DNA of 64,000 nucleotides from Acidobacteriota bacterium. GTDB taxonomy: Bacteria > Acidobacteriota > UBA890 > WLXD01. Below the pieces are notes generated by a model. That model searched no databases and was not told the origin of the DNA. It was given only the letters and a program-made list of their open reading frames with translations. Within the stretch, counting starts at the first letter, position 1; each line of letters opens with the position of its first letter. The stretch spans positions 384,001 to 448,000 of the forward strand of contig CAXWPL010000002.1 in assembly GCA_963666215.2 (NCBI GenBank), in the 5' to 3' direction. A program made the translations under genes and the position numbers. Shown here in pieces: positions 1-14,236 of this stretch.

Positions 1-1026
1 AGGTTCGAGGTGGGCGAGGACACGCTTCTGTTCCTGGCACCCGGCACGGCCGGGACTCCGGGCGCCTGGCAGGTGAATCACTTCGCGCTCGGCGCCTTCC
101 GTGTGCATGAGCTCGGTGGTGTCTCGATGGCGCTGCGTTCCCTCGGCGAGATCGACGAGGTCGATAAGCCGGGCGGCGGTGAGCGCGTTGTCAGCGTGCA
201 GCGCGCCCACCACCCTCGTGATCTGGACCGTTTCATGACCTGGGTCAAGGCGCGGAACGCCGGTGTGGACCTGCCGCAGGACTACTTCCTGGATCCGGCC
301 GACGGAACGATGCGCAACGCCCACGACGGGTACGCTTTGCTTCTTGCCCCGTCGGGCACCCGTATCCGGTGGCCGAACTTCGACTTTGCCGCGGGAGCAC
401 GGGTGGTGCGCTGGTTCATCGCGCGCACCCAAGCTGGCTTCCCTGGCGGTGGCCGCATCGACTTCAACCAGTCGATCAAGAAATGGGACAAGCTGAAGAA
501 GGGCGCCATCATCGAGTATCGCGCTCCAGCGAAGCGGCGTAACGCCTTCACCTCGGGCTTCACTGCCTTCGATGGCAACAATACGATTCTGATGAACGAC
601 CCGAACGGCGAGATTGCCAATCTGGTTGGCTGCACGGGCACGCTGGCGATTGGCGGGCCGTGGTTCATCGACGCTATCGAGCCGGAGGCCGCGAGCGGTG
701 AGTTCCAAGCCGCGTCTGTCGGCAACTCACATCGCAAGCGGGGCAAGATCTTCCGCAACACCGTTAGTGCCGACATCATCAGCAACAATGGCCTCAAATG
801 TTTCTACAACGCCAGTCCCAACAAGCGTAAGCATGCTCGGCAGCTCTACATGCACGAGCTCGGCCACACGTTGGGCCTGGGGCATTCGCTGGTCACGGTC
901 GCCCTGATGTTCCCCAGCATCAGCCCGATCCCGAAAGACGTCATCAAGCCAGACGACTCGAAGGGCATCCGAATCAACGGCGGGATGCGCTACACGGAGG
1001 CCGGCGTGGCCTACAAAGCCCTGTAG
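1..1026 (+). CDS. Secreted matrixin-like (metzincin) zinc metalloprotease, paralog 1; 5'-truncated by the window edge
   Basis: HELGHTLGLGH zinc motif and Met-turn (ALMFP). Frame is open from base 1. Collinear with the two downstream paralogs. Confidence 0.85.
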   Translation, partial: RFEVGEDTLLFLAPGTAGTPGAWQVNHFALGAFRVHELGGVSMALRSLGEIDEVDKPGGGERVVSVQRAHHPRDLDRFMTWVKARNAGVDLPQDYFLDPADGTMRNAHDGYALLLAPSGTRIRWPNFDFAAGARVVRWFIARTQAGFPGGGRIDFNQSIKKWDKLKKGAIIEYRAPAKRRNAFTSGFTAFDGNNTILMNDPNGEIANLVGCTGTLAIGGPWFIDAIEPEAASGEFQAASVGNSHRKRGKIFRNTVSADIISNNGLKCFYNASPNKRKHARQLYMHELGHTLGLGHSLVTVALMFPSISPIPKDVIKPDDSKGIRINGGMRYTEAGVAYKAL

Positions 1027-1050
1027 CCGCTAGCCTGCATCCGAGACGTA

Positions 1051-1092
1051 GCACCACGGCCCCGGGCTGCACGCGGCTCGGGGCCGTGGTGC
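1051..1092. terminator. Long GC-rich hairpin downstream of protease 1 (possible terminator or mRNA stabiliser)
   Basis: GCACCACGGCCCC (1051-1063) is the exact reverse complement of GGGGCCGTGGTGC (1080-1092). The inner segment also pairs. No U-tract. Confidence 0.4.
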
Positions 1093-1418
1093 GTCAAGGC
1101 CGGCCTCGCGCGCCGCGCGCATCTCAACCCGGGTCGTGACGCGGGCAAGTTGAACCGCTCTGCAGGCGGGCGCTGCGCTCGCGGTGCGCACTGCCCCGCG
1201 GTGCGCACTGCGCCACAGGCGCCGCTCGGTGCGGCTCGGGGCCTCTCGAGGCCCCCGAAGCCTCTTCTCGTTGGCGATTGTCGTGGGCGGTCCACCGATG
1301 TCCGTGCGTGGCTTAGCAAATCCATCCACAGCAGATCAGAAGTGACTTTAAACAAGCAATACTGTTCCATAGTGGCCCACGAACGCCGTCAATACCTGTT
1401 GCGGATCTGGGGGGCATC

Positions 1419-2771
1419 ATGGATCGAAGACGAACATCACGCGCCGCCACTTCTCTGCGAGCGCTGGCGACAATCGCCGGCCTGTCTCTGATCGTGGGAA
1501 ACCTGGCAGTGGGCGCGACGACGTACGTGATGGTGTCGGACGAGGATCTGGTCGACAGCTCTTCGGTTGTTGTGCGCGCCCGCGTGCTCGACAAACAACC
1601 GGCGCCCGACGGGAGTCCCTACACCGACTATCGGATGCAGGTGGATCGCGTGGCGAAGGGCAGGATCGCTTCCAGCGCACGTATCGTGATCAGCGTTCTC
1701 GGTGGCGGGACTGCTGGACGACCGCAGTTGGCCCTGTGGGGTGTGCCGGAGTTCGACGTTGGCGAGGAGACGTTGCTGTTCCTCTCGGGGAGGTCGGGCA
1801 GCTCTTCGGGGTCTCGAGGCGCATGGCAGGTGAATCACCTGGCCCTGGGCGCGTTCCAGGTGCACGACATCGGTGGCTCGAAGGTCGCGCTCCGCGCTCT
1901 CGCCGAGATCGACGAGATCGAGAACTCCGATGCGCGAGAGCGGCCGATGAGTGTGCAGCGGGCTCACCACCCACGGGACGCCGATCTCTTCATGGGCTGG
2001 ATCAGGGCTCGCGAGGCTGGCGTGGACTTGCCGCAGACGTATTTTCTCGAGCCTTCGGACGGTCTGCTGCGGAACATCCACGACGGGTTCACGACTTCGC
2101 GTAGCGCGTCTAACTATCGCCTCCGCTGGCCAGACTTCGATCTTCAGCGAACCGTGCCGTGGAACGTTGCGGGCTATCAGGCCGGGTTGCCTGCCGGCGG
2201 GCGGTCCGACTTCAACCAGGCGCTTCGCAAGTGGGATCAGCTCGCCAAGGCGATCATCGACTACCGCGGCCCTGCCGTACGAAACAACGCGTTGGCGAGC
2301 GGATTCACCCGCTCGGACGGCAGGAACACGCTCCTGTTCAACGATCCGAACGGCAGGATCCCTGACCTGGTGAACTGCACAGGAGCTGTGGCCGTCGGCG
2401 GTCCGTGGTACGCGGATACGTCCGCGTCGGGGTGGTCCCATACCAAGCGCCGGATGATGTTCCGCAGTATCGTCGAGGCCGACATCATCAGCAACAACGG
2501 GCTGGGTTGCTGGCTCAAGAACAGCCCGAACACGCGGAAGCACGCCCGCCAGGTCTACATGCACGAGCTTGGCCACACCCTGGGCTTGGGTCATTCGTGT
2601 GGCGATTCCAAAAGTGGCTCGTGCAACACGAAGGCAAAGGACAACGCGTTGATGCGCGCCTACCTCTCCAAAGTGCCTGCCGACGTGATCCGACCCGACG
2701 ATTCGAGAGGTGCGCGACTCAACGGTGGGCTGCGCTACAACCGGCGCGGTGTGGGCTTCGTGAGCTTGTAG
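1419..2771 (+). CDS. Secreted matrixin-like zinc metalloprotease, paralog 2 (intact)
   Basis: Signal peptide ending AVGA|TTY, N-terminal pro-like domain, HELGHTLGLGH, ALMRA Met-turn. Confidence 0.85.
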   Translation: MDRRRTSRAATSLRALATIAGLSLIVGNLAVGATTYVMVSDEDLVDSSSVVVRARVLDKQPAPDGSPYTDYRMQVDRVAKGRIASSARIVISVLGGGTAGRPQLALWGVPEFDVGEETLLFLSGRSGSSSGSRGAWQVNHLALGAFQVHDIGGSKVALRALAEIDEIENSDARERPMSVQRAHHPRDADLFMGWIRAREAGVDLPQTYFLEPSDGLLRNIHDGFTTSRSASNYRLRWPDFDLQRTVPWNVAGYQAGLPAGGRSDFNQALRKWDQLAKAIIDYRGPAVRNNALASGFTRSDGRNTLLFNDPNGRIPDLVNCTGAVAVGGPWYADTSASGWSHTKRRMMFRSIVEADIISNNGLGCWLKNSPNTRKHARQVYMHELGHTLGLGHSCGDSKSGSCNTKAKDNALMRAYLSKVPADVIRPDDSRGARLNGGLRYNRRGVGFVSL

Positions 2772-2962
2772 GTGGCGACGTAGGTCCGCGGGTGTCCGTC
2801 GTTGTCAAGCAGCTTCGCCAGGGGTACGTCGCTTGGCTTCGAGCCGGTGCCACGATCGCCGCTCGTGCGAGACGTTGCCTGGTTGCCGTCGGGCTCCCCG
2901 AGGACCTGAGCGGGTGACGGACTCGATCCATCTCCGGGTGCCGAAGGTGGCCGTGGTCTGCA

Positions 2963-4298
2963 ATGAGTCAGCGATCCTCTCTTGTTGTCCTGGGCGTTTT
3001 GACCGCTTGTATCGTGCTCGCCGTCCTGACGGGGGGAATGCCGGCGGCGGCCACGACGTACGTCATGATGTCGGACGAAGACCTGGCGGACAGCTCGCCG
3101 GTTGTGGTCCGTGCGCGCGTCCTGGACAAGCAGCCGGCGCCAGATGGGCGTCCGTACACCGACTACCGCCTGCAGGTTGAGCGCGTTGCCAAGGGTCGGA
3201 TCGCCGTCGACACGCAGATCGTAGTCAGCGTCCTCGGCGCGGGGGTGCCGGGTCGGCCGCAGCTCTCGTTGTGGGGCGTGCCGGAGTTCGAGCCAGGCGA
3301 GGAGACGTTGCTGTTTCTCGACGGCTCCTCGGCTGGTACGCCAGGCTCATGGCAGGTGAACCACCTGGCCCTCGGGGCGTTCCGTGTTCTCGACATCGGT
3401 GGAGTGCAACTCGCCCTACGCGCCCTGGGAGAGATCAACGAGGTGGAACATCCCGATGCGGGCGACAGGCCCATGAGCGTTCGGCGCGCCCACCATCCGC
3501 GCGATCTCGATCGGGTCATGGGTTGGATCAAGGCGCGAGATGCAGGCGTTGATCTGCCACAGGACTACTTTCTCGAACCGGCGGAAGGTCTCGCGCGAAA
3601 CGCCCACGACGGGTACACCACCTTGAGCACGGCCTCCAGCTATCGCGTCCGGTGGCCGGACTTCGATCGCGGCAGCATTCTCGTTTGGTTTATCGCTCGC
3701 AACCAACCTGGCCTGCCGGACGGCGGACACAGAGCCTTCAACCAGGCACTGAACAGGTGGGACGATCTTGCCAATGCGATCATCGACGTGTGGACGCCGG
3801 CCCCAAGGAACGACTCGCTGGTGTCGGGTTTCTCGGCCAGCGACGGAAACAACACGCTCCTGATGAACGATCCCAACCACAGGATCCCCGATCTGGTGAA
3901 CTGTACTGGAGCGCTGGCCGTCGGCGGCCCCCTGGCACGTTGACTCGGAGGCGGCAGGGTGGTCGCACATCAAGCGCGGCATGATGTTCCGCAATATCGT
4001 AGAGGCCGACATCGTCAGCAACAACGGAATCGCCTGCTGGTTCAGGCAGAGTTCGAAGAAGTGGATGCATGCGCGGCAGCTCTACATGCACGAGCTCGGC
4101 CACACGTTGGGGCTCGGGCACTCGTGTGGTGATTCGGCTAGCGGGCCGTGTGACACGAGGTCGGAGAGCAACGCGCTGATGCGGGCGTCGACCTCGAAGA
4201 CTCCCTCCGACGTGATCCGAGCGGACGACTCGAGAGGGGTGCGATTCAACGACGGGCTGCGCTATACCCGTCGCGGCGTCGGATTCATCGATCGCTAG
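2963..4298 (+). pseudogene. Matrixin-like metalloprotease, paralog 3, with a +1 frameshift (real or sequencing error)
   Basis: ORFs 2963-3943 and 3981-4298 together match paralog 2. Removing one C from the C5 run at 3928-3932 restores GGPWHVDSEAAGWSHIKRGMMF. Confidence 0.8.
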
Positions 4299-5119
4299 AT
4301 CGTGACGCCGAACCGGCCCTTGAGCGCGAAGGCGATGACGATCGTCAGAATGAAGAAGACGATCAGCCAGTGCGTCTCGAAGCCGAACAGGCCGACCTCT
4401 CGGTCGGGGTAGTCGACGCTGATCGAGGTCACCGACGAGTCGGCGGGTAGTGACGGCTCGGCCGGATAGAGCAGCTGATCGACGAACCGCGGTGCCAGCC
4501 GATCGGGCGAACGTCGAACGACGTTGTTGCCGACATCGATGGTCTTGGTCACCGTCTCACCGCCGATGCGTATCGGGAGCTCGTAGCTGCCCGGCTGGCT
4601 GGCCACGATACGGAAGGCGAGCTCACGTACGGCGGGAAACCAGGAGATGCTGCTGTCGGCGCCGAGCCCCTCCGGGAAGTCGACCTCCACGTCGGGACGC
4701 GTGCTGCCGGCCGACTCCGCCACGGTGATCTTCATCAGCACCGGCTCGCCAACCTTCAATCCCTCGTAGCCGTAGTGGAACTGCAGCTGCGCAATCACCA
4801 GCACAAACGGCAGCATCATCCAGAACATCGGGATGAGGTTGAGACGCATGTAGTTGAGGTTGTGCCTCAGGATGTCCCACTGGGCCCGGAAGATGGCGCG
4901 GATGTCATCGTTGAACAGGCGGATCTCGAACAACCCCGCGGCGATCTTGGCCTTTACGGCGGTGACCGCGTCCTGATTCGACGTTGCCTTGTAGCCCAGC
5001 AGCATGCCGATCGAGGCGATCACCGACACCACGCCGAGGCCGACCATTGGATGCAGCCCCCGGAAAGGCAGCAGTAGCAGGTCAAAGAGCGTGCGTAGGA
5101 GGCTGTTCAAGAGAGACAT
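4295..5119 (-). CDS. Membrane protein, DUF106/EMC3/TMCO1-like topology with an inserted soluble domain
   Basis: TM1, charged helical segment (SNQDAVTAVKAKI...), TM2 (LIPMFWMMLPFVLV), ~130-aa beta-rich loop, C-terminal TM (WLIVFFILTIVIAFALK). Family call is by pattern only. Confidence 0.55.
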   Translation of the reverse strand: MSLLNSLLRTLFDLLLLPFRGLHPMVGLGVVSVIASIGMLLGYKATSNQDAVTAVKAKIAAGLFEIRLFNDDIRAIFRAQWDILRHNLNYMRLNLIPMFWMMLPFVLVIAQLQFHYGYEGLKVGEPVLMKITVAESAGSTRPDVEVDFPEGLGADSSISWFPAVRELAFRIVASQPGSYELPIRIGGETVTKTIDVGNNVVRRSPDRLAPRFVDQLLYPAEPSLPADSSVTSISVDYPDREVGLFGFETHWLIVFFILTIVIAFALKGRFGVTI

Positions 5120-5155
5120 TCGTTCAGATACCGTGGATACCGTTCGGATGGGTGA

Positions 5156-5419
5156 GATCTCCCTTATTACTTGAGATCGAAGCGACGGGCGGCTCTGAGG
5201 AGCTAGGAAATGTAGCCCAGGCCCTGAAGCTTCTTGCGGATGTCGTCCTCTGAGTCGGCCTCCTCGAGAACCGCGAGCTCCTTTTCGAGCGCGTGCGTGA
5301 TGAACTCTTCGACCGACGAGTAGCCGGCGATGTTGGCGTACTTCTTCACCTTCGCGATGAGGTCCTTGTCGAGCTTGACCCTGCCGCCTCCGAACATGAT
5401 GTGATCTCCCTTATTACTT
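5156..5419. repeat. 17-bp exact direct repeat GATCTCCCTTATTACTT flanking the small RHH-like gene
   Basis: Copies at 5156-5172 and 5403-5419. Confidence 0.9.
5203..5397 (-). CDS. Small CopG/ribbon-helix-helix-like protein with C-terminal LQGLGYIS tail
   Basis: RVKLDKDLIAKVKKYA...GYSSVEEFITHALEKEL fits the RHH pattern. GGGAG RBS upstream of the ATG. Confidence 0.75.
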   Translation of the reverse strand: MFGGGRVKLDKDLIAKVKKYANIAGYSSVEEFITHALEKELAVLEEADSEDDIRKKLQGLGYIS

Positions 5420-5432
5420 TCGCGCTAGTCAA

Positions 5433-7512
5433 CTATTCTGCGGGTTCGGGCTCGAGCGTGACCGGCGTGCTGCCGTCGGGGAACCCCTCGATACCAAACT
5501 CGGCGAGGAGGGTCGCGGCCAGATTCTGCAACGACGTCGCCTGACGGCCGAGCCGCTTGTTGGTGAACAGAACGCCCGGCACCGTCTCGTTCCTGATCCA
5601 TGATGTGGTCGCCTGACCAGTCGTCGAGGTTGTCGCCGATCCACTCCACAGGCATGCCGCCGAGCGCCGACGACCCCGAGCATGCCGCCGAGCGCCGACG
5701 ACCCCCGCGTGTGCCTTTCGCGAAGCCGACGATAATGTCGGGTCCGATCTCGAGGTGGCCACGGTCCTTGAAGTCGCGCTCCCGCACGTAGACGCGGGTG
5801 ACGGCCGGTTGGCCGGTCACGGGGTCGATTGCCGCAAGCAGGTCTCGCTCGAGCTGCTCGATCAACTCCTGGCGGTCGCCGGGCGCTACCACGCCTCGCG
5901 GCTCGCGGCCTCGTAGGTTCAGGTACAGCCCGCTGATGCCGAGCCCATAGGCCTGCGTGCGCCGCCAGTTGACGCCGGTCCAGAAGTCGGCCACCGGCAG
6001 CTTCGTACGGCGCTCGAGCTCCATGTATCCGCTGTCGACGAGCCAGGTGTTCAGATGGAACGAGCGTCGCCAGCTCGTGAAGCCGTGATCCGACATGACG
6101 ACGAGAGTGATGTCGTCGCCGGTTTCGTCGATGTAGTCGAGTGTACGGCCGACCATCTCGTCGAGGCGCTCGTACGCCTGGGGAATGGTGTCGGCGTAGG
6201 GCTCGTGCAGCTCGGGAACGTGCGCCGGATGGCCGGGGTCGAGCGTGACGCCCCAGAGGACGTGCGAGAGCTGGTCGAGGTTGCCGACGTAGTAGAAGAG
6301 GAACTCGCCCGTCCAGTTGTCGAGCATCCAGTCGTACTGCAGCCGATTCTCGCGGCCGATGATGCTCGCCTGGTGGACGAACTCGCCCGTGTCGAACAAA
6401 TCCCACTGGATCGCCTTGGTGTCCTCGGGCATCTCCTGGGTGTAGAAGCGCCCCGTGGCCTCGGCCATCTCCGCCGCGAAGCCCTCGGGGCTCGAGATCG
6501 GCATCGCGGGCGCCATCGGATCCATCTGGATCGGGCTCACGTAGAGCTCGAACTCGGGCTCCACCGACTTGAGGTAGAAGCGCACGATGCCGCTGATTGA
6601 TTGCAGGTAGGGGATGAGCTCGAACTCGACCTCGACCCAGTCGCTCCACTCGCCGGCCTCGAGCAGCAGCTCCTCATCGCCAACCACGAGCTTGGTGCCG
6701 CCGACGTCCGCGTCGATGTAGGCCGTGAATTCGCTCACGAGCTCTTCGGGCTCGATCAGCAGCGGGTGCGGTGGGCCGTACAGGGCACCCTCGAAGACAC
6801 CGTCGACGACGTCGGCCGGGTAGATCTTGCCGCCCGAGATGTTGCGGTTGAACTGGGTACGATCGGTGGTGAAGAAGTGGAACTCACCAGAGGTGCCGCG
6901 GAGGTCGGGCGTGCCCATACCGGAAAGCTCGTAGGTGCCGACTCCGACCGGCGGGAAGTTGGCCGGCATACGAATCATCGTGCTCTCGAAGCCGTTTTCT
7001 TCGAGCTGCTGCCAGAACGTGTCGCCGTATCGGGCGAGCTCGATGCCGCCGCCCGACAGGGGCAGCCGCCACTTGCCGATGTCGATCGTGCGGCCGACCG
7101 GGATCTCCTTGCTCGTGGCTTGATACGGCGTTCCGAACGGGAAGGGTGAGTCTTCGACCTCTCGGTGCAAGAAATCGAATATGCCGTGGCCGCCGCTATC
7201 GAGGCCGGTGATGAAGTTCGACCAGGCAACTGGACTCTGCGGCGAGTACGCGGTTTCGAGCGGCGAGAAGCCGCCTTGCTGGGCGACACGCGCCAGGTTC
7301 GGGAGGCGGCCCTGCTCGATGAGCTCGGTTGTGAACTCGTGGTCCATGCCGTCGAAGCCGAGGACGATCATGCGCTGACGTGGCGATTGGGCGCCCGCCG
7401 ACGCTGCTACCAGCGAGCTGGCGACAACCGCGACCGCAGGTGCCGTAAGTGCCGTAAGTGCCAGCAGGCCGATGGAACCGAGCAGAGTCCGAGTACGCGT
7501 TCGGAGGGTCAT
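5433..7512 (-). CDS. Alkaline phosphatase superfamily (type I phosphodiesterase/NPP-like) enzyme with signal peptide; C-terminal frameshift
   Basis: GFDG, QSPVAW, DQLSH, SDHGF and WSGDH motifs. The homologous ending ETVPGVLFTN...(stop 5433) lies in another frame after ~5595. Confidence 0.8.
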
Positions 7513-9746
7513 GGCGCGTTGTCTCCGGCATTCGAAAGCGTCAAGGCCTTCCCGTCCATATGAGGTGGCGGCTGCAGGCCGAACTGCTCGAGCGCGGTGG
7601 GGGCGATGTCGATGAGCGACGGCTCGTCTTCTTGCATATCACGGTTGCAGAAGATCACGCCCGGCACCAGCCGTGGATCGACGCAATGGTCACCGCTCCA
7701 CGCCTTGACGTTGTCCTCGAACAGCGGTGCCGAAACAACGCCGGTGGCGCAGTCCCACGAGGTTCGGTAGCCGCGGTTGTAACCGATGATGAACTCGGGG
7801 GCGTTCTCGAGATAGGGGCCCTGGTACAGCTTGGCGGTATCGAACGCTTCGATGATCGCCACCTCGCCGGTTTCAAGGTCGATGAGGCCCTCGAGCTTGG
7901 CGGCGATCTCTTCCTTGAGCGCCGCGACCTCGGTCTTGTGGACGATACCCTGACCCTCGCGGTCCTTGATGTTGAAGAACATGCCCGACAGGCCGAGGCA
8001 ATAGGCCTTGGTCTGTGACCAGTCAACATCGAGCAACCACTCGGCTTTTCCTGCCTCGGCGCCCGACTCGGTCGCGGTCGGCTTCAGCGTGAGGTAGCCG
8101 TTGTCGAGTAGCCATCGATTGAGGTTCACACCGCGGCGGAAGGAGGCGAAGCCGTGGTCCGAGAGCACCATCAGTAGGTCGCCGTCGCGCAGCTTGTCGA
8201 TGACCTCGCCGACCAGCTCGTCGTTGCGGATGTAGAGCTCTTCGATCGTGTCGTGGCAATCGCTTCTGTCGCCATTGCCGTTGGTTGCAGCGCCATTCCG
8301 GCTGTTCCCACCGGCCGCCAGCGCAGCCGGATGATCGTTCTCCAGATACCGCCAGAACATGTGCTGGATGCGGTCGGTGGCGTCGAACACGCACACCAGG
8401 CAGCCCTTGTGCAGGCGGTCCCAGGCCGCCCAGAACATCTCCTTGCGCTCGTCGTCGATGTCGAACGTCAGCTGCTTGAAGTGGCGGTCCTCAATGACCT
8501 TCTCGTTGAGCGCCCAGGTGTCTTCGGCGAGGCCGAGCGTCGAGTACTTACCCTGTAGCTTCGACAGATAGATCGCGTAGTAGTCGGGATGCGAGATGGG
8601 CATCGCCGGCTTTTCCGGATCCAGAGCGATGGGTGTCATGTAGAGCGAGAAATGAGGTTCGAGCTCGGTGATCATGATCCGGACAATACCCCTGACCTTG
8701 ACGCCCGGGACGGCGGGGAATGCCAGCTCGGTCCAGTCAGACAGCTCGTTGACCTTCAGCGATAGGTCCTTGTCGCCGACCTTGAGCTCGACGGTCCCAG
8801 TGGTCACATCGAAGGAGCCCGAGAGCGGCAGCTCGAGGGGCGGCGTTCCCACCCGCATGGAGTTCTCGGGGCCGGTGAGCGTGCCCTCGAACGCGTTGCC
8901 GTTGACTGTCACCGGCATGCGCATGCCGCCCTCCTTGAACTTGCCCTCTTCGGGCTTGTTCGTGAAGAGCAAGAACGTGCCCTGTGTCCCGAGTAGGTCC
9001 GGCACACACATCGCTGAAAGCTGGGCTCCATAGAACCGGTCGGGAGGGAAGGTAATCGGCACCCGCAGCACAGTGCTCCAGATGTTGTGCTCGCCGAGTA
9101 TCGTCCAGAAGGGCTTCGATTTGCGCAGTAGCCGCAGCTCAGGCTTGTCTCGCGGAATCTGGAACGGCCCGAGCTTGAGGTACCTGTCGACCGAGCCGAT
9201 CTTGGTGGACGACAGCACGGGCAGGTAGGTCCGTCGGTCGCGGTCGAGAAAGTCGTAGATGTTGTGGCGCGCCGGGTGGCTGCCGGTGGAGAACGACGAC
9301 CAGGCCACCGGAGAGATCGACGGGAACGTGGTCTTGAGCGGCTTGTAGGAGCCCATCTCGCCGAGCCGCTTGAAGTTGGGCAGCTTGCCCTCGGCCATGA
9401 AACGGTCGGTGAGCTGCGGGTCTTGCCCGTCGAAGCCCACGACGATCATCCGCTTGATCTTCGGGGTCGCCCTCGTTCGCCTCGTGAGCGCCCGCCACAG
9501 CATGCGGAACGGCCAGATCAACAGCGACAGGAACGCCACCAGCATCGTTGTGAACAGCACCATGAAGCTGGTCACGAAGGCGAAACCCGCTCCCGGGCCA
9601 ACGTAGGCCTCGGCTACCGTTGGCGTTAGCGTAGCGGCCGCCATTAGCGCGAGCGTTACGGCGATCGCAACGCGGCGAGCGCTTGCGCTGCCGTCTTCGA
9701 TTCGGATTCGACTAGATCGCCCTGTCACAGCGTTCGCACCGGCCAT
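7509..9746 (-). CDS. Alkaline phosphatase superfamily (NPP-like) enzyme with N-terminal AYVGPGAG membrane module
   Basis: Start placed at ATG 9746, just after the upstream stop. Signal-like segment ending AEA|YVGPGAG plus a TM helix. GFDG, ISPVAW, DRIQHMFW, SDHGF, WSGDH. Confidence 0.85.
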   Translation of the reverse strand: MAGANAVTGRSSRIRIEDGSASARRVAIAVTLALMAAATLTPTVAEAYVGPGAGFAFVTSFMVLFTTMLVAFLSLLIWPFRMLWRALTRRTRATPKIKRMIVVGFDGQDPQLTDRFMAEGKLPNFKRLGEMGSYKPLKTTFPSISPVAWSSFSTGSHPARHNIYDFLDRDRRTYLPVLSSTKIGSVDRYLKLGPFQIPRDKPELRLLRKSKPFWTILGEHNIWSTVLRVPITFPPDRFYGAQLSAMCVPDLLGTQGTFLLFTNKPEEGKFKEGGMRMPVTVNGNAFEGTLTGPENSMRVGTPPLELPLSGSFDVTTGTVELKVGDKDLSLKVNELSDWTELAFPAVPGVKVRGIVRIMITELEPHFSLYMTPIALDPEKPAMPISHPDYYAIYLSKLQGKYSTLGLAEDTWALNEKVIEDRHFKQLTFDIDDERKEMFWAAWDRLHKGCLVCVFDATDRIQHMFWRYLENDHPAALAAGGNSRNGAATNGNGDRSDCHDTIEELYIRNDELVGEVIDKLRDGDLLMVLSDHGFASFRRGVNLNRWLLDNGYLTLKPTATESGAEAGKAEWLLDVDWSQTKAYCLGLSGMFFNIKDREGQGIVHKTEVAALKEEIAAKLEGLIDLETGEVAIIEAFDTAKLYQGPYLENAPEFIIGYNRGYRTSWDCATGVVSAPLFEDNVKAWSGDHCVDPRLVPGVIFCNRDMQEDEPSLIDIAPTALEQFGLQPPPHMDGKALTLSNAGDNAP

Positions 9747-9750
9747 CCGT

Positions 9751-11085
9751 TCAGCTCGCTTTTGGTTCGTTCTGGTCGTCGCTCTCGTTTCTCTCGTGGT
9801 CTCTCTCACATTCTCTCTCCAGCAGACCGGCCAGCTCGCCGATCCATAAGTCGCCGTCGATGGGCTGCGGCGAGAGCAAGAACGCGTCGTCGTAGGTATG
9901 CATTCCGACGAGGTCGGTACGATCGAAGGTGCGCGTCGCCCTGGGCGACGCCTTGAGATCGAATCCCGGCTCGGCCAGAACGACCAGATCCGGACCTTTC
10001 GGAACCCGCGGGCCCGCGTAGATCGCGCTAGCGTCGTAGACTTCGCGAATCGCAGCCGCGCCATCATACCGCAGCTCGCGCAGCCGGTTTTGTAGCTCGA
10101 ACATCAGTGATTTCGCCTCTCCCGGCGCCACGCTGCCGCGCGCGAAGCGGCCGCGACGGTGGATGTAGATGCGGCCGGGATCGAGGGCGAAGGCGCGCGA
10201 ACGCCCGGAGATGGTCTCGAGTCCCAACTGCGGCTCCGAGTCGAACTCCAGGTAGCCGTTCTCCTGCAGCCAGTGGTTGAGCTGGACCTCCTGGCGGATG
10301 GCGCAGAACCCATGGTCGGACAGCAGCCAGGTGCGCTCGCGACAATTCAGCCGATCGAGGATCTCGCCGATCAGCGCGTCGACGGCGCGATGGTAGTCAA
10401 GCGCTTGTTCATGCCGTGGGTGCGAAGGGTCGACGAGGGAGTCCCAAAGGTAGTGATACAGGCGGTCGGTTCCGGTCACGACGATCTGCAGAAAGTCCCA
10501 GTCGACCGACTCCGAGAGGTGGATGAGGGCTTCGCGCCGCGTACGCAGCGACTCGTCCAGCTGTTCGAACAACAGGTCGTGGTCGGTTCGGCAGCGCCCG
10601 GTGTCGATGTCGATGCGGTAGCCCATGCGCCGTAATGGCGCCAGGTGCGTGAGGGGCTTGATTGACTTGGCGAGATCGATCGCCACGAACCCCGAAACGA
10701 TCGCGCCGGGGATGGAGCGTGCCGGGTAGGTTGCCGGTTGGTTGAGCACGACGGATGTGAGACCGCGAGCGCCGAGTCGGTCCCACAAGGTGTCAACCTG
10801 AAGGTCACGGAAGCTCGGAAACCGTAGCTCGTAGGTGTCGACATCGATGTCGGTAAAGCCGAAGATGCCGTGCGTGCCGGGGTCGACGCCGGTCATGAAG
10901 CTCGACCAGCTCACCGACGAGATCTCGGGCAACGACGCGCGGATCTTGCGTAACGAGCCTGATGGGCGAGACTCGATCAGCTCCGCGAGCCGGGGCATGA
11001 CCCCGGAGCCGGTGAGTTGCAGAATCAACCCGTGCGGCACTCCGTCGAGCCCGATGACGCAGGTCCGTCGTCTACCTCCGTTCAT
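9751..11085 (-). CDS. Alkaline phosphatase superfamily (NPP-like) enzyme, cytoplasmic
   Basis: Start MNGGRRR at 11085. GLDG, ISSVSW, DRLYHYLW, SDHGF, VGMH. No signal peptide. Confidence 0.85.
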   Translation of the reverse strand: MNGGRRRTCVIGLDGVPHGLILQLTGSGVMPRLAELIESRPSGSLRKIRASLPEISSVSWSSFMTGVDPGTHGIFGFTDIDVDTYELRFPSFRDLQVDTLWDRLGARGLTSVVLNQPATYPARSIPGAIVSGFVAIDLAKSIKPLTHLAPLRRMGYRIDIDTGRCRTDHDLLFEQLDESLRTRREALIHLSESVDWDFLQIVVTGTDRLYHYLWDSLVDPSHPRHEQALDYHRAVDALIGEILDRLNCRERTWLLSDHGFCAIRQEVQLNHWLQENGYLEFDSEPQLGLETISGRSRAFALDPGRIYIHRRGRFARGSVAPGEAKSLMFELQNRLRELRYDGAAAIREVYDASAIYAGPRVPKGPDLVVLAEPGFDLKASPRATRTFDRTDLVGMHTYDDAFLLSPQPIDGDLWIGELAGLLERECERDHERNESDDQNEPKAS

Positions 11086-11095
11086 GGGCCCGACT

Positions 11096-11695
11096 CTACA
11101 GGTAGCCCAGCGCTTGCAGTCGCTGCTTGATCGCCTCTTCCTCTTCGGGCGTTGTGTCGTCGTCCTCGCCGGGCGGGACGTAGCCGAGCAACTCGAGCGA
11201 GGTGAGGATCTTGTCGAGGCTCTGTTGCAGCGTCTCGGCCTCGGTATCGCACACAATCTCGGGCTTCAGCGGTTCTTCGTACGGGTCCGAGATCCCTGTG
11301 AAGTTCTTGATCTCGCCGGCAAGCGCCTTCTTGTACAGGCCCTTGGGGTCGCGCTCCGACAGGTGCTCGATTGAGCAAGTCGCGTAGACCTCGACGAAGT
11401 TGTCCATGCTCTCGCGCACCTCGTCACGCACCGATCGGTACGGCGAGATGGCCGCCGAGATCGCCACCACACCGTTGCGCGACAGCAAGTTGCAGACGTA
11501 GCCGATGCGTCGAATGTTGATGTCGCGGTCTTCCTTCGAGAACGTGAGGCCCTTGCTGAGGTTGGTGCGGACCTCGTCGCCGTCGAGGATCTCAACCCGG
11601 TGGCCGCGCTCGCGGAGTAGGGGAGCGAGCGCGTTCGAGATCGTCGACTTTCCGGCTCCTGAGAGACCGGTGAACCAGAGGGTGAAGCCTTGCAT
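11096..11695 (-). CDS. cysC: Adenylyl-sulfate (APS) kinase with an extra acidic linker and LQALGYL tail
   Basis: WFTGLSGAGKST P-loop, LDGDEVR, RDPKGLY, FTGISDPYEEP. Confidence 0.95.
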   Translation of the reverse strand: MQGFTLWFTGLSGAGKSTISNALAPLLRERGHRVEILDGDEVRTNLSKGLTFSKEDRDINIRRIGYVCNLLSRNGVVAISAAISPYRSVRDEVRESMDNFVEVYATCSIEHLSERDPKGLYKKALAGEIKNFTGISDPYEEPLKPEIVCDTEAETLQQSLDKILTSLELLGYVPPGEDDDTTPEEEEAIKQRLQALGYL

Positions 11696-11771
11696 GACGT
11701 ACTCCGAAAAGGGTGCGGGGTTGAGCCTGTGGCGGGAATCTTGCGGCTTGCGAAGCCGAACCGGCAGCTGG

Positions 11772-12947
11772 CTAGGCCTTGACGGCGGCCGGCTGCTCGA
11801 TGCCCTGAAAATGCTGCTTGAGGATCGCGGCTATTTCCGGCCGGGTGAACTCGGCCGGTAGGTCCTCGCCGTTTCCGAGCATCTCGCGGATGTTGGTGCC
11901 GCTCAGGAACACGTGGTCTTCCTTGCCGTGCGGGCAGGTTTTTGTCGATCCCATGTTGCCGCAGGCGTTGCAGAAGAACGCATGGTCGAAGAAGAGCGGC
12001 GTGATGCCGATCTCCAACCGATCAAACTCCTGGAAAATCACGTGAGCATCGTAGGTGCCGTAGTAGCCGCCAACCCCAGCGTGATCGCGACCCACGATGA
12101 AGTGTGTGCACCCATAGTTCTTGCGCACGATGGCGTGGAATACGGCCTCACGCGGGCCGGCGTAGCGCATCGCCGCCGGCAGAATCGACATCGCCACGCG
12201 ATCTGGCGGGTAGTAATTGTCGAGCAGAGCGAGGTAGCACTTGAGGCGCACGTCGGCTGGAATGTCGTCCGACTTGGTCTCGCCCATGATCGGGTGGATC
12301 AGCAGCGCATCGACCATCTCGAGGGCGCACTTCTGTAGGTACTCATGTGCCCGGTGGATCGGGTTACGCGTCTGGAATGCGGCCACGCTGTTCCAGCCCT
12401 TGGCCTTGAACAGCACACGCGTCTCGCGCGGGTCAAGCCGGTAGCGTTCCAGCTCGTCGTCTTGCGGCCGCTCGATCACCGTGACCTGGCCGCCGAGGTA
12501 AACATCGCGGGAACGGCGCAGGTAGCCAACTCCGGGGTGCGCGTCGTCGGTTGTACGGAGAACCTTGAGCGCTTCGCGCTCTTTGTCGGGGGTGTAGATG
12601 TTGGAGATCTCGATCATGCCGAACACGGTGCCAGCCTCGTCGACGAGCGCGGCCTCGGTATCGGGCGCCAACCTCTGCGCTTCCTCGGGGCTGCAGCTGA
12701 GCGTGATCGGGATCGTCCAGGGCAGGCCGTTGGCCAGCCGGCCGTTCTCACAGACGCTGTCGTAGTCCGACCGACCCAGGAAGCCGGTGAGTGGGCTCAG
12801 CGCTCCGGTCGCGATCATCTCGAGGTCGCTTGCCTCGCGGCGGTTCATTACGATCTCGGGTAATCCGCCGAGTCGAGCGCGGAGCGCCGTAGTTTCGTCG
12901 TCGGTTGCGAAGCGGCTTACCAGGCGGCCGCCGTGGGCTTTGATCAT
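11772..12947 (-). CDS. sat: Sulfate adenylyltransferase (ATP sulfurylase)
   Basis: [34 protein letters not shown]. Confidence 0.97.
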
Positions 12948-13162
12948 CAGAGGTACCCCAGGTTTTCGAGTTTCTTACGAATCGCACTGAGCTCGTCGGG
13001 TGGCAGATCGTTGTTCCCCGGCTCTGGGCTCAGGGTGCCGACGAGGTCGCGCAGGACGAACACGATGAAGTCTGTCGGCGAGCTGAAACCGGATCCGTCG
13101 ATGACCTCGACGAGCCGGTTGTACAGCGGCCGCGGAATCTTGATGCTGACGCGATCGCTCAT
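12947..13162 (-). CDS. Small CopG/ribbon-helix-helix protein with C-terminal LENLGYL tail
   Basis: [13 protein letters not shown]...[15 protein letters not shown] fits the RHH pattern. Its stop codon overlaps the sat start (TGATG). Confidence 0.8.
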
Positions 13163-13206
13163 GTTTGGACAGCGGATTTGCCCGCGTCGGGCGGGCTTGG
13201 CGGACC

Positions 13207-13269
13207 GATTGGGTCCTGATTGGGTCCTGATTGTACCCCAATTAGAGCCGGGCGCTAGTCAGCTAGTCA
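13207..13269. repeat. Tandem repeats upstream of the RHH-sat-cysC operon
   Basis: GATTGGGTCCT x2 plus GATTG (13207-13233); GCTAGTCA x2 (13254-13269); minus-strand TACAAT (-10-like) at 13230-13235. Confidence 0.6.
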
Positions 13270-13378
13270 CCCCTCGCAAGAAATTTAATCGCCGGCGCGC
13301 TGTCCAGAAGCCACGCGAGCGTCGCCCCAGTTGCGACCCTACGGATCGGATCGCCCTATTGCGCCAGCTGCAGCCCAG

Positions 13379-14236
13379 CTAGAAGTACTTCGACGCGTGT
13401 CGCAGCAGGTCGTCGTGGACCACGCTGTTCGTCGCCAGCAAACCGCGCATGTTCTCCAGCGCGTTGGCGTCGGTCGCGTCGTAGCGGATCGGCGAGCCGT
13501 CGAAGTCGGTCATGCGGCCGCCGGCCGCGGCGAGGATCGCTTCGGGGGCGCAAGCGTCCCATAGCTTGGTTCCGCGGCTCGGGTGAAGGTACAAGTCGCA
13601 GTCTCGAGTCGAGATCCGTCCGATCTTGAGGCCGACGCTGCCCGACTTGACCATCTGGGTGATCCCCACCTCGTCGGCCATGCGCCGGACGGTCTCGGGG
13701 GTATGGGAGCGGCTGACGATCAGCTTGAGGGCGCTGAGCTCCGACGTGCCGCTCACTGCGAGCGGCGAGACCTCGGTGGCACCGTCGGCTGCCGAAATTG
13801 ATCCGCGGCGAACCACCTCGGCTCCCTCGCCAACGACGCCGCGATAGAGGGTGTCGGTGGCAGGCTGGTAGACAACGCCCATCGTGGGCCGACCGTCGAC
13901 GCACAGACCGATCATGGCGGCGAACTCGTCGGTGTGGTTGATGAACTCCTTGGTGCCGTCCATGGGATCGACCATCCAAACGCGGTGCTTGCCGACGAGC
14001 GCGTCCGTGTCGATCGATTCCTCTGAGAGGACGCCGTCTGAGGGGAACGCGGCGTTCAGGCGCGAGACGATGAGGCGGCTGGATGCGTGATCGGCCTCGG
14101 TAACCGGATCGGCCTCGCCCTTGAGCTCGACGGTGTAGTCGCCGCGGTAGTAGCTCATCAGGACGGCGCCTGCGTCGCGCACGATCTCCTCGATCGTGGT
14201 GAGCTGCTGGCGCTGTAGGCTGGCAAGCGTGGACAT
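13379..14236 (-). CDS. cysQ: 3'(2'),5'-bisphosphate nucleotidase (PAP phosphatase)
   Basis: PVTEAD, LSEE, WMVDPMDGTKEF, SRSH, WDACAP inositol-monophosphatase-family motifs. Adjacent to sat/cysC. Confidence 0.9.
   Translation of the reverse strand: MSTLASLQRQQLTTIEEIVRDAGAVLMSYYRGDYTVELKGEADPVTEADHASSRLIVSRLNAAFPSDGVLSEESIDTDALVGKHRVWMVDPMDGTKEFINHTDEFAAMIGLCVDGRPTMGVVYQPATDTLYRGVVGEGAEVVRRGSISAADGATEVSPLAVSGTSELSALKLIVSRSHTPETVRRMADEVGITQMVKSGSVGLKIGRISTRDCDLYLHPSRGTKLWDACAPEAILAAAGGRMTDFDGSPIRYDATDANALENMRGLLATNSVVHDDLLRHASKYF

Follow-up and report, generated by a model that had tools for sequence, protein, structure and literature searches.

At positions 4295-14236 of the window, a 64,000-nt stretch of the genome of an Acidobacteriota bacterium that was analysed here, lies a nine-gene cluster in which genes for making and recycling activated sulfate (3'-phosphoadenosine 5'-phosphosulfate, PAPS) stand beside three genes for enzymes of the alkaline phosphatase (AlkP) superfamily. 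We propose that this cluster is a PAPS supply and recycling unit, consisting of ATP sulfurylase (Sat), adenosine 5'-phosphosulfate (APS) kinase (CysC) and the nucleotidase CysQ, which is joined functionally, and probably also physically, to AlkP enzymes that resemble nucleotide pyrophosphatases/phosphodiesterases (NPP) and PhnA. A C-terminal tail, L-x-x-L-G-Y, is new here; it is shared by CysC, two small proteins of the cluster and many AlkP-superfamily enzymes, and that of CysC is predicted to dock in the first AlkP enzyme of the cluster, AlkP1. Together with the conserved linkage of cysC to AlkP genes, this points to an undescribed handling of activated sulfate. Our preferred reading is that AlkP1 would take the sulfuryl group of PAPS via Ser56, a chemistry that we infer, with the docking predicted by a model; we give this reading a probability of about 0.4. 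The idea of sulfate transfer is strengthened by 23 genomes that encode CysC without a detected PAPS consumer and by the predicted docking of the tail.

All nine open reading frames (ORFs) are on the minus strand, in the order reported by the earlier note on this sequence: cysQ, RHH1, sat, cysC, AlkP1, AlkP2, AlkP3, RHH2 and Memb. The product of sat (11772..12947, 391 residues) matches PF01747 with 327 bits, as well as PUA_2, and passes the curated cut-offs of NF003166 (535 bits, cut-off 387) and TIGR00339 (420.7 bits, cut-off 322.95). CysC (11096..11695, 199 residues; PF01583, 202 bits) likewise passes those of NF002059 (270.1 bits, cut-off 244), whose match spans residues 2-173 of 199, and TIGR00455 (222.8 bits, cut-off 138.7), and it carries a 25-residue C-terminal extension. 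The cysQ gene (13379..14236, 285 residues) encodes a CysQ-like 3'(2'),5'-bisphosphate nucleotidase for the removal of 3'-phosphoadenosine 5'-phosphate (pAp); it matches PF00459 with 183 bits, and its best NCBIfam model, TIGR01331 CysQ, scores 181.5 bits, under the cut-off of 228.8. Its position is unchanged in loci L001-L004, L006, L007, L103-L108, L110 and L111. AlkP1 (9751..11085, 444 residues) is a cytoplasmic NPP/PhnA-like enzyme of the COG3379 type with Ser56 as nucleophile, and the source annotation names it only generically as 'AlkP superfamily phosphohydrolase/phosphomutase'. Packing is indeed tight from RHH1 onward, as had been described, with intergenic gaps of -1 to 83 nt through to Memb and the RHH1 stop codon overlapping the sat start; cysQ stands 216 nt apart from RHH1.

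This arrangement is not a product of chance, because its synteny is conserved in dozens of genomes. A first survey, of the best 80 of 556 confirmed AlkP1 loci, found cysC in 12 of the 80 and none in 68, around a core of AlkP1-AlkP2-AlkP3-RHH2-Memb. As one Aminicenantes clade dominated these loci, the survey was replaced by an even phylum sample of 301 genomes, 60 of which have an AlkP1 orthologue at E ≤ 1e-80; neighbourhoods were read in 59 genomes besides the source, over approximately 8 kb upstream where the contig allowed. In this sample the linkage to PAPS genes that the earlier note expected was found for AlkP1, with cysC upstream on the same strand in 39/59 genomes, which supersedes the weak linkage suggested by the first survey. 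Where at least 1.6 kb of upstream sequence was available the count is 39 of 53, six of the 20 negatives having less. The adjacency of cysC and AlkP1 recurs in 9 of the 19 GTDB families sampled, in at least four gene orders, and CysC itself is present in 58/60 AlkP1-bearing genomes vs 129/241 others, related genomes not being independent of one another. The AlkP1 cluster is spread over Acidobacteriota including Aminicenantes, Eisenbacteria, candidate division B38 and metagenome-assembled genomes (MAGs) labelled Desulfobacterota. The flanking genes seen in Aminicenantes (HEAT-repeat and HD-domain proteins, rhamnosidase, rhamnose isomerase, FGGY kinase, aminotransferases and OmpH) were set aside as lineage synteny and offered no functional lead.

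Five arrangements were read. The first, cysQ-RHH1-sat-cysC-AlkP1-AlkP2-AlkP3-RHH2-Memb (A), is that of the organism's own family; the others are sat-AlkP4-cysC-AlkP1-AlkP2-AlkP3-RHH2-Memb (B), RHH1-AlkP4-cysC-PHP-AlkP1 followed by further AlkP paralogues (C), cysC-sat-AlkP1 (D), and AlkP1-AlkP2-AlkP3-RHH2-Memb alone (E). AlkP4, another paralogue of the COG3379 type, shares 27-29% identity with AlkP1. Among the type E genomes checked, RHH1-sat-AlkP4-cysC stands elsewhere in L087 and L088, and AlkP4-cysC in L090; in ten further genomes the coordinates place a COG3379-type gene about 1 kb or less from cysC. The assignment of a pAp phosphatase to the cluster also stood: it is the CysQ-like protein here and, in family f20, a PHP-type enzyme, for which NCBIfam gives 3',5'-nucleoside bisphosphate phosphatase as the best model (227 bits, short of its cut-off of 400). 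That family includes Cv1693, a pAp phosphatase of the PHP type that PMC8268124 cites. Arrangements A-D and the identity of the PHP protein therefore indicate that these clusters repeatedly bring COG3379 AlkP enzymes together with the making of PAPS and the disposal of pAp.

Two variants of these neighbourhoods are recorded in passing. In the f20 locus L136 (9486-12103, plus strand), AlkP1 is followed by a radical-SAM gene, for which the STM4011 family is the best NCBIfam match, and by a PF00884 sulfatase-like gene with a weak match to the STM4013 family; the locus continues with two unknown proteins of 517 and 573 residues and a tail-bearing PF01663 paralogue. In two other genomes a gene of the PAPS_reduct family lies 1.5-2 kb from AlkP1 (G239:C15:18117-18707 and G034:C54:28745-29332, with 155 and 143 bits), and the cluster may exist there in a CysD/CysH-type variant.

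The 59 AlkP1 genomes were searched for recognised consumers of PAPS. PF01507 (PAPS_reduct, which covers CysH and CysD) was found in 8 and the sulfotransferase family PF13469 in 28. The sulfotransferase family PF00685 was found in 7 of the 31 genomes that have no PF13469, four of them belonging to genus g46, and 24 genomes thus matched neither family. CysC is encoded in 23 of these 24, and Sat in the 5/5 that were tested; 21 of them have no PF01507 match of any kind, and G035 and G065 have matches of 26-27 bits. PAPS is made and pAp removed in the absence of a recognised consumer, and the AlkP enzymes encoded beside cysC are the obvious candidates. A divergent sulfotransferase in these genomes may have been missed by the profiles.

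The second line of evidence is the tail. The C-termini of CysC, RHH1 and RHH2 are built alike, with an acidic linker that leads into ...[IV]-x-x-[KR]-L-x-x-L-G-Y-[IL]; in CysC these are residues 168-199 (11099..11194, minus strand), ending ...EEEEAIKQRLQALGYL. The tail is present on 38/38 CysC C-termini read beside AlkP1 orthologues, and on 13/13 in the first locus set, with L193, L196, G197 and Y198 invariant, whereas CysC elsewhere ends natively in ...L-x-x-x-G-[YF]-[LI] with no extension. In the window, the native end, ...SLELLGYV, already resembles the ...LQALGYL of the tail 20 residues later (11099-11260); the extension has the look of a second copy, by duplication, of the helix with which the kinase itself ends. 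All RHH1 orthologues keep the tail, and the RHH2 tail, ...SDSEEEIKKKLKGLGYIS, is nearly invariant across loci.

Throughout the source genome, 25 stop-to-stop frames of at least 50 residues end in L..LGY[LIVM] plus 0-3 residues, three of which are the cluster proteins. Among the remainder, at least 13 resemble sulfatases in their N-terminal core, where Thr replaces the sulfatase Cys and His or Gln replaces Arg; several tailed enzymes have signal or lipoprotein leaders, and a few tailed frames are fragments or doubtful ORFs. Of ten tailed proteins compared with Pfam, nine match PF00884 Sulfatase (eight with SGSH_C) and the tenth SGSH_C alone. The extra PF01663 paralogues of f20 are tailed as well, and AlkP1 to AlkP4 are not. 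Judged from sequence, then, the tail is confined almost wholly to AlkP-superfamily enzymes and proteins of the PAPS cluster. A cargo peptide of the encapsulin type was rejected by reasoning, the tail being found on exported lipoproteins and cytoplasmic proteins alike. A large set of tailed PF00884 paralogues, mostly with SGSH_C, has T-x-P-S-H/Q and an end of ...LRALGY[ILV]Q; examples lie at C2:381915-383567, just left of the window, and at C1:557692-559125, C3:11020-12354 and C5:1556772-1558223. Identical tailed proteins occur on two contigs (C1:7906-11132 vs C3:413971-417195, and C1:759699-760058 vs C4:1062110-1062469), and may be either repeated segments or assembly duplicates.

We modelled AlkP1 together with the excised 32-residue peptide of CysC (residues 168-199), each with a custom unpaired alignment. 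The interface score (ipSAE, interaction prediction score from aligned errors) was 0.91, 0.92 and 0.92, and the best of three controls reached 0.02; the score mark is reached by 58/80 solved complexes and 2/110 mismatched pairs, counts that hold only roughly for custom alignments. The runs share at least 87% of contacts, with a partner pLDDT (predicted local distance difference test) of at least 68. On the side of AlkP1, the contacts form a conserved cleft consisting of I55 (beside Ser56), F77, F89, F133/V134, D159, R166, D207, R208, H211, D302/P303, K378 and residues 390 and 392. On the side of the tail, L196 contacts D207/R208/H211, G197 contacts H211/K378/390/392 and Y198 contacts F77, so the invariant Gly-Tyr is predicted to sit on the AlkP1 metal centre. 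After this docking, an amphipathic membrane-targeting helix or a tail-to-tail zipper is a less favoured role for the tail. We know of no similar complex.

Such a placement of G197 and Y198 at the metal centre would also suit a regulatory cycle based on phosphate, in which the AlkP enzymes act on the tail and PAPS synthesis is under feedback control, either by removing a phosphate or nucleotide from the tail tyrosine or by RHH repressors that are held by their tails until substrate displaces them. The tails are nearly invariant and NPP-type enzymes cleave phosphodiesters, and in many lineages RHH1 is the first gene of its operon, as autoregulators often are. However, nothing in the clusters looks like a kinase or nucleotidyl transferase for the tail, the RHH-like proteins match no Pfam RHH family, and exported enzymes, which lie beyond the reach of a cytoplasmic regulatory cycle, share the tail. 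A cycle of this kind seems to us improbable.

The catalytic residues of AlkP1 are intact. AlkP1, AlkP2 and AlkP3 match PF01663 with 123.8, 91.5 and 99.4 bits (gathering cut-off 23), and Ser stands at the predicted nucleophile of all three, as had been read earlier, in the strings PEISSVSW, PSISPVAW and SPQSPVAW; C/SxPxR is absent. AlkP1 orthologues are 50-65% identical across Acidobacteriota, Aminicenantes and MAGs labelled Armatimonadota, and conservation in 20 of them is complete or at least 90% at D14, S56, D207, H211, D257, H258 and H396, which leaves intact both the ligands of the two metals (Asp; Asp+His; Asp-His; His) and the Ser nucleophile position. A profile of these 20 orthologues matched PhnA alone in the Protein Data Bank (PDB), at E ~7e-4 over approximately 100 residues, and aligned S56 with the PSFT position of PhnA, that of its Thr nucleophile. 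The AlphaFold2 (AF2) model of AlkP1 (pLDDT 91), which has no signal sequence, is nearest in fold to PhnA (1ei6 and 3t02, TM-score 0.60-0.65; Foldseek gives 1ei6_A at E 1.1e-15, 0.60/0.65), followed by ENPP1/3/6 and Xac NPP (TM-score ~0.5-0.6; ENPP and Xac NPP at E ~1e-13). Its identity to any solved member is only 14-18%. The PhnA equivalog TIGR02335 was rejected, AlkP1 and AlkP2 scoring 24.3 and 21.1 bits against a cut-off of 407.55, in the N-terminal 100 residues only.

These nearest relatives, among which phosphodiesterases, nucleotide pyrophosphatases and PhnA are the closest in both fold and sequence, would equally suit hydrolysis of the pathway's own nucleotides. AlkP1 and AlkP4 might be PAPS/APS sulfohydrolases or pyrophosphatases, pAp phosphatases or pyrophosphatases proper, which would keep the amount of PAPS in check or draw the Sat reaction onward, while the tail would serve as a tether or as a plug sensitive to product. 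The nucleophile and every metal ligand are in place for this, and both the cysC linkage and the docking would fit any partner enzyme of CysC equally well. Against it, the clusters already have a dedicated pAp phosphatase in CysQ or PHP, a PAPS hydrolase encoded with PAPS synthesis amounts to a futile cycle, and 23 genomes would be left without a detected PAPS consumer. Nor does hydrolysis explain the two to five paralogues per cluster with their membrane-anchored and exported members. We regard it as a tenable but doubtful account.

Still other hydrolases to be considered are sulfatases, since AlkP-superfamily enzymes can hydrolyse sulfate esters. If the AlkP enzymes were Ser-type sulfatases that free sulfate from organic esters outside the cell, at its membrane and in its interior, Sat and CysC would re-activate it, and this would agree with an organism rich in sulfatase-like genes and with the PF00884 sulfatase-like and radical-SAM genes that follow AlkP1 in f20. 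The identity of a formylglycine sulfatase was rejected for AlkP1-AlkP3, which have no C/SxPxR at the nucleophile and gave no PF00884 match, and Ser-nucleophile NPP-type enzymes are known only as poor, promiscuous sulfatases. In addition, sulfate salvage would make the pAp phosphatase and the contact between CysC and AlkP1 superfluous, and in an organism lacking sulfate reduction it must still end in sulfation. We consider salvage very improbable.

That PAPS is destined for sulfation follows from the source genome itself (4.65 Mb, 5 contigs, 91.7% complete), in which PF01507 and the sulfite reductase family PF01077 NIR_SIR have zero matches genome-wide; PAPS here therefore serves sulfation. The statement that no cysH, sulfite reductase or sulfotransferase accompanies the cluster holds within the window, and the nine cluster proteins have no PF00685 or PF13469 match at E ≤ 0.01, the 5'-PSB (PKSGT-like) and 3'-PB motifs being seen only in an unrelated gene of genus g46; for sulfotransferases it fails at the scale of the genome. 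Outside the window, PF13469 and PF00685 have 4 matches each, with two loci common to both. The best PF13469 match is at C5:890268 (113 bits), with three weaker ones, and PF00685 matches at C4:694779 (83 bits) and C2:374512-375120 (34 bits, ~9 kb left of the window), with two weaker ones. The single sat and single cysC of the genome are both in this cluster, which therefore must also supply the canonical sulfotransferases.

Alternatively, sat, cysC and cysQ might feed only sulfotransferases elsewhere, canonical or divergent. The AlkP module would then be just a stable neighbour, for example a phosphodiesterase or head-group transferase whose substrates are phosphate-containing molecules of the envelope. 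The sulfotransferases of the own genome and the PF13469 matches in 28/59 AlkP1 genomes are in favour of such a module without any tie to sulfation, as are the known chemistry of the family, which is phosphoryl transfer, and the many Aminicenantes loci (68/80 in the first survey) in which the module stands without PAPS genes. But Aminicenantes genomes too keep AlkP4 in a sat-cysC operon, and cysC and AlkP1 are found side by side in several gene orders across 9/19 GTDB families. The co-occurrence of CysC in 58/60 AlkP1 genomes, the tail on 38/38 AlkP1-adjacent CysC and the strong predicted docking likewise speak against mere neighbourhood, and we judge this explanation quite unlikely.

In the sulfuryl-transfer reading that we prefer, the CysC tail in the AlkP1 cleft would let PAPS be made beside AlkP1. 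Ser56, at the two-metal site, would then take the sulfuryl group from PAPS and release pAp, which CysQ would remove, and would hand the group on to an acceptor, for which the tail tyrosine is the nearest candidate. AlkP4, where it occurs elsewhere, would use PAPS likewise via a Ser intermediate. More tentatively, AlkP2 at the inner membrane face and AlkP3 in the periplasm, together with RHH2 and Memb, may use or relay the group at the envelope.

Several observations count against this reading. The canonical sulfotransferases of the own genome alone would justify a sat-cysC-cysQ operon, which weakens it for this organism. In 14 of the 53 informative loci there is no cysC within ~8 kb upstream of AlkP1, and two genomes, G239 and G248, have AlkP1 and no CysC match. 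In genus g46 the cluster itself contains a canonical 264-residue sulfotransferase (PKSGT, RDPRD; weak PF00685), encoded between AlkP4 and cysC (L129:5012-5806, plus strand; also in G042, G072 and G133). Family searches were run on six-frame translations of MAGs, which limits their negatives. PF03567 and PF17784 were found in 0/24 of the genomes without PF13469 or PF00685, a weak negative because the control genomes matched neither family; relatives of the g46 sulfotransferase were also found in 0/24. As to the docking, its score is the model's own confidence, obtained with an excised peptide and unpaired alignments, and a tail in this position would fit an inhibitor, a regulator or a simple tether just as well. 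A tail that occupies the cleft would, moreover, compete with any substrate.

Should sulfuryl transfer by AlkP1 be right, the tail itself may be the carrier, a more speculative extension that we hold to be unlikely. AlkP1 and AlkP4 would sulfate the tail tyrosine, and sulfotyrosine tails would carry activated sulfate to AlkP2, AlkP3 and the tailed enzymes. The carriers would be CysC, RHH1, RHH2 and the exported Thr-type sulfatase-like and PF01663 enzymes, and activated sulfate could in this way reach the envelope without PAPS crossing the membrane.

In the literature searched (listings and abstracts), we found no account of what COG3379 proteins do, of a PAPS-dependent sulfotransferase with the AlkP fold, or of PAPS clusters that include NPP-type genes. 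PMC12421950 was set aside, since it deals with a classical formylglycine sulfatase. AlkP1 shares with the NPP/PhnA clade the PF01663 family, the fold, the two-metal ligand set and the position of the nucleophile, but differs in having Ser in place of Thr, and in its cysC linkage and the protein tail predicted in its cleft; neither of the latter two is described for NPP or PhnA in the literature searched.

Group transfer through a covalent Ser/Thr intermediate is the chemistry of the EptA/MCR-type phosphoethanolamine transferases, LtaS and OpgB, which belong to the PF00884 branch, draw on membrane phospholipid donors and act outside the cytoplasm. By analogy, the nucleophile here would pass a donor group to an envelope acceptor, and membrane-anchored and periplasmic members occur in both; the present enzymes differ in belonging to the PF01663 branch, in having one soluble cytoplasmic member and in their implied donor, PAPS. 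Canonical sulfotransferases (PF00685, PF13469) have the same genomic role, being encoded with sat, cysC and a pAp phosphatase, but bear no relation in sequence or fold to the AlkP proteins, which match only PF01663, and they transfer the group directly, with no covalent intermediate and no metal ions.

Bifunctional PAPS synthases, in which Sat and CysC are fused, likewise hold successive enzymes of the pathway together, and the bifunctional Sat/CysC model NF004040 partially matches both window proteins. Here, however, the link is a predicted non-covalent C-terminal peptide, and it joins CysC to the enzyme after it, where the fusions join Sat to CysC. In caprazamycin sulfation, the PAPS-dependent Cpz8 is followed by the arylsulfate sulfotransferase (ASST) Cpz4 via an aryl sulfate, so that a small polyketide carrier links a canonical sulfotransferase to an ASST beta-propeller. 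If the tail tyrosine were sulfated, a phenolic sulfate would be the secondary donor in both, with a protein tyrosine as the hypothetical carrier and AlkP-fold enzymes in place of those two proteins.

To our knowledge, all well-studied PAPS-dependent sulfation uses one enzyme fold, and bacterial sulfation outside the cytoplasm is largely unexplained. The cluster is a concrete and widespread candidate for a second sulfation route, built on chemistry of the alkaline phosphatase type, and there is a real chance that its enzymes are a new class, AlkP-fold sulfotransferases. It also offers a testable handle in a 12-residue tail whose invariant Gly-Tyr is predicted to lie on the metal centre. If the tails are carriers, a new carrier principle would be added to the new enzyme class. 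Even if the AlkP enzymes are hydrolases or regulators, a peptide directed at AlkP-fold active sites and common to a kinase, two small RHH-like proteins and about twenty exported enzymes of a single genome would still be new, and at least 21 PAPS-making genomes without a recognised consumer would pose a metabolic question.

The topology proposed earlier for the three AlkP enzymes, one cytoplasmic, one membrane-anchored and one exported, is borne out by their N-terminal signals. The membrane-anchored paralogue AlkP2 (7509..9746, 745 residues; PF01663) begins with a signal-like helix, A-x-A|Y[VI]GPGAGFAF, a second transmembrane helix, WPFR and a K/R-rich stretch, a motif conserved within the own family and as far away as Aminicenantes. 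The basic stretch after the second helix suggests, by the positive-inside rule, that the catalytic domain faces the cytoplasm. The strictly conserved element between the two helices (window 9480-9746; orthologues in L102-L124) may be a signal-peptidase site, leaving a new N-terminus outside, or a tight membrane hairpin.

AlkP3 (5433..7512; PF01663) is taken to be exported because its orthologues carry lipoprotein or Sec signals in close relatives and Tat signals (RREF) in Aminicenantes. In the window, its gene is frameshifted at ~5590-5597, where tblastn with three orthologues shifts frame directly after GDHIMD, and the last ~50 residues run on in the next frame to a stop at 5433. It also has an insertion, a 24-nt direct repeat (period 28) at ~5660-5715 that gives eight in-frame codons (GRRRSAAC). 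Either a misassembly or a pseudogene at an early stage could account for this.

RHH1 (12947..13162, 71 residues), RHH2 (5203..5397, 64 residues) and Memb (4295..5119, 274 residues) have no Pfam or NCBIfam match at E ≤ 0.01. RHH1 is ribbon-helix-helix (RHH)-like, with an acidic linker and the C-terminal tail, and its orthologues head sat/AlkP4/cysC operons in distant lineages; RHH2 is also RHH-like and ends ...SEDDIRKKLQGLGYIS. Their identity rests on the sequence pattern and on nearest Atlas clusters auto-named CopG family, which share no common Pfam family and show PF01402 only at a score of 0.86. RHH2 lies downstream of AlkP3 in 52/80 loci of the first survey and 22/59 of the even sample, and AlkP2-AlkP3-RHH2-Memb is a separable second module found in 22/59 loci.

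Memb is a membrane protein whose AF2 model (pLDDT 88) has a bundle of four N-terminal helices, an Ig-like beta-sandwich (~127-250) and a C-terminal transmembrane helix. Foldseek against the PDB returned only filamin/SbsC Ig-like domains (E ≥ 1.7e-3). A weak Atlas lead is an EMC3/TMCO1 cluster (score 0.86), 17% of whose members carry PF01956; in VIA-align, 7tut_8, from the TMCO1 region, reached Z 8.2 over 136 residues with a root-mean-square deviation of 4.5, tied with unrelated helical hairpins.

On either side, the cluster is flanked by metalloproteases (left) and by an ACT-domain protein, SAICAR synthetase and GroEL (right); these flanks are unrelated to it, and the unit is therefore bounded as the earlier note had drawn it. 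The left flank, at 10-4298 on the plus strand, is a run of met-zincin-like metalloprotease genes or fragments, and a 105-residue ORF with HELGHxxGLGH abuts the Memb stop codon.

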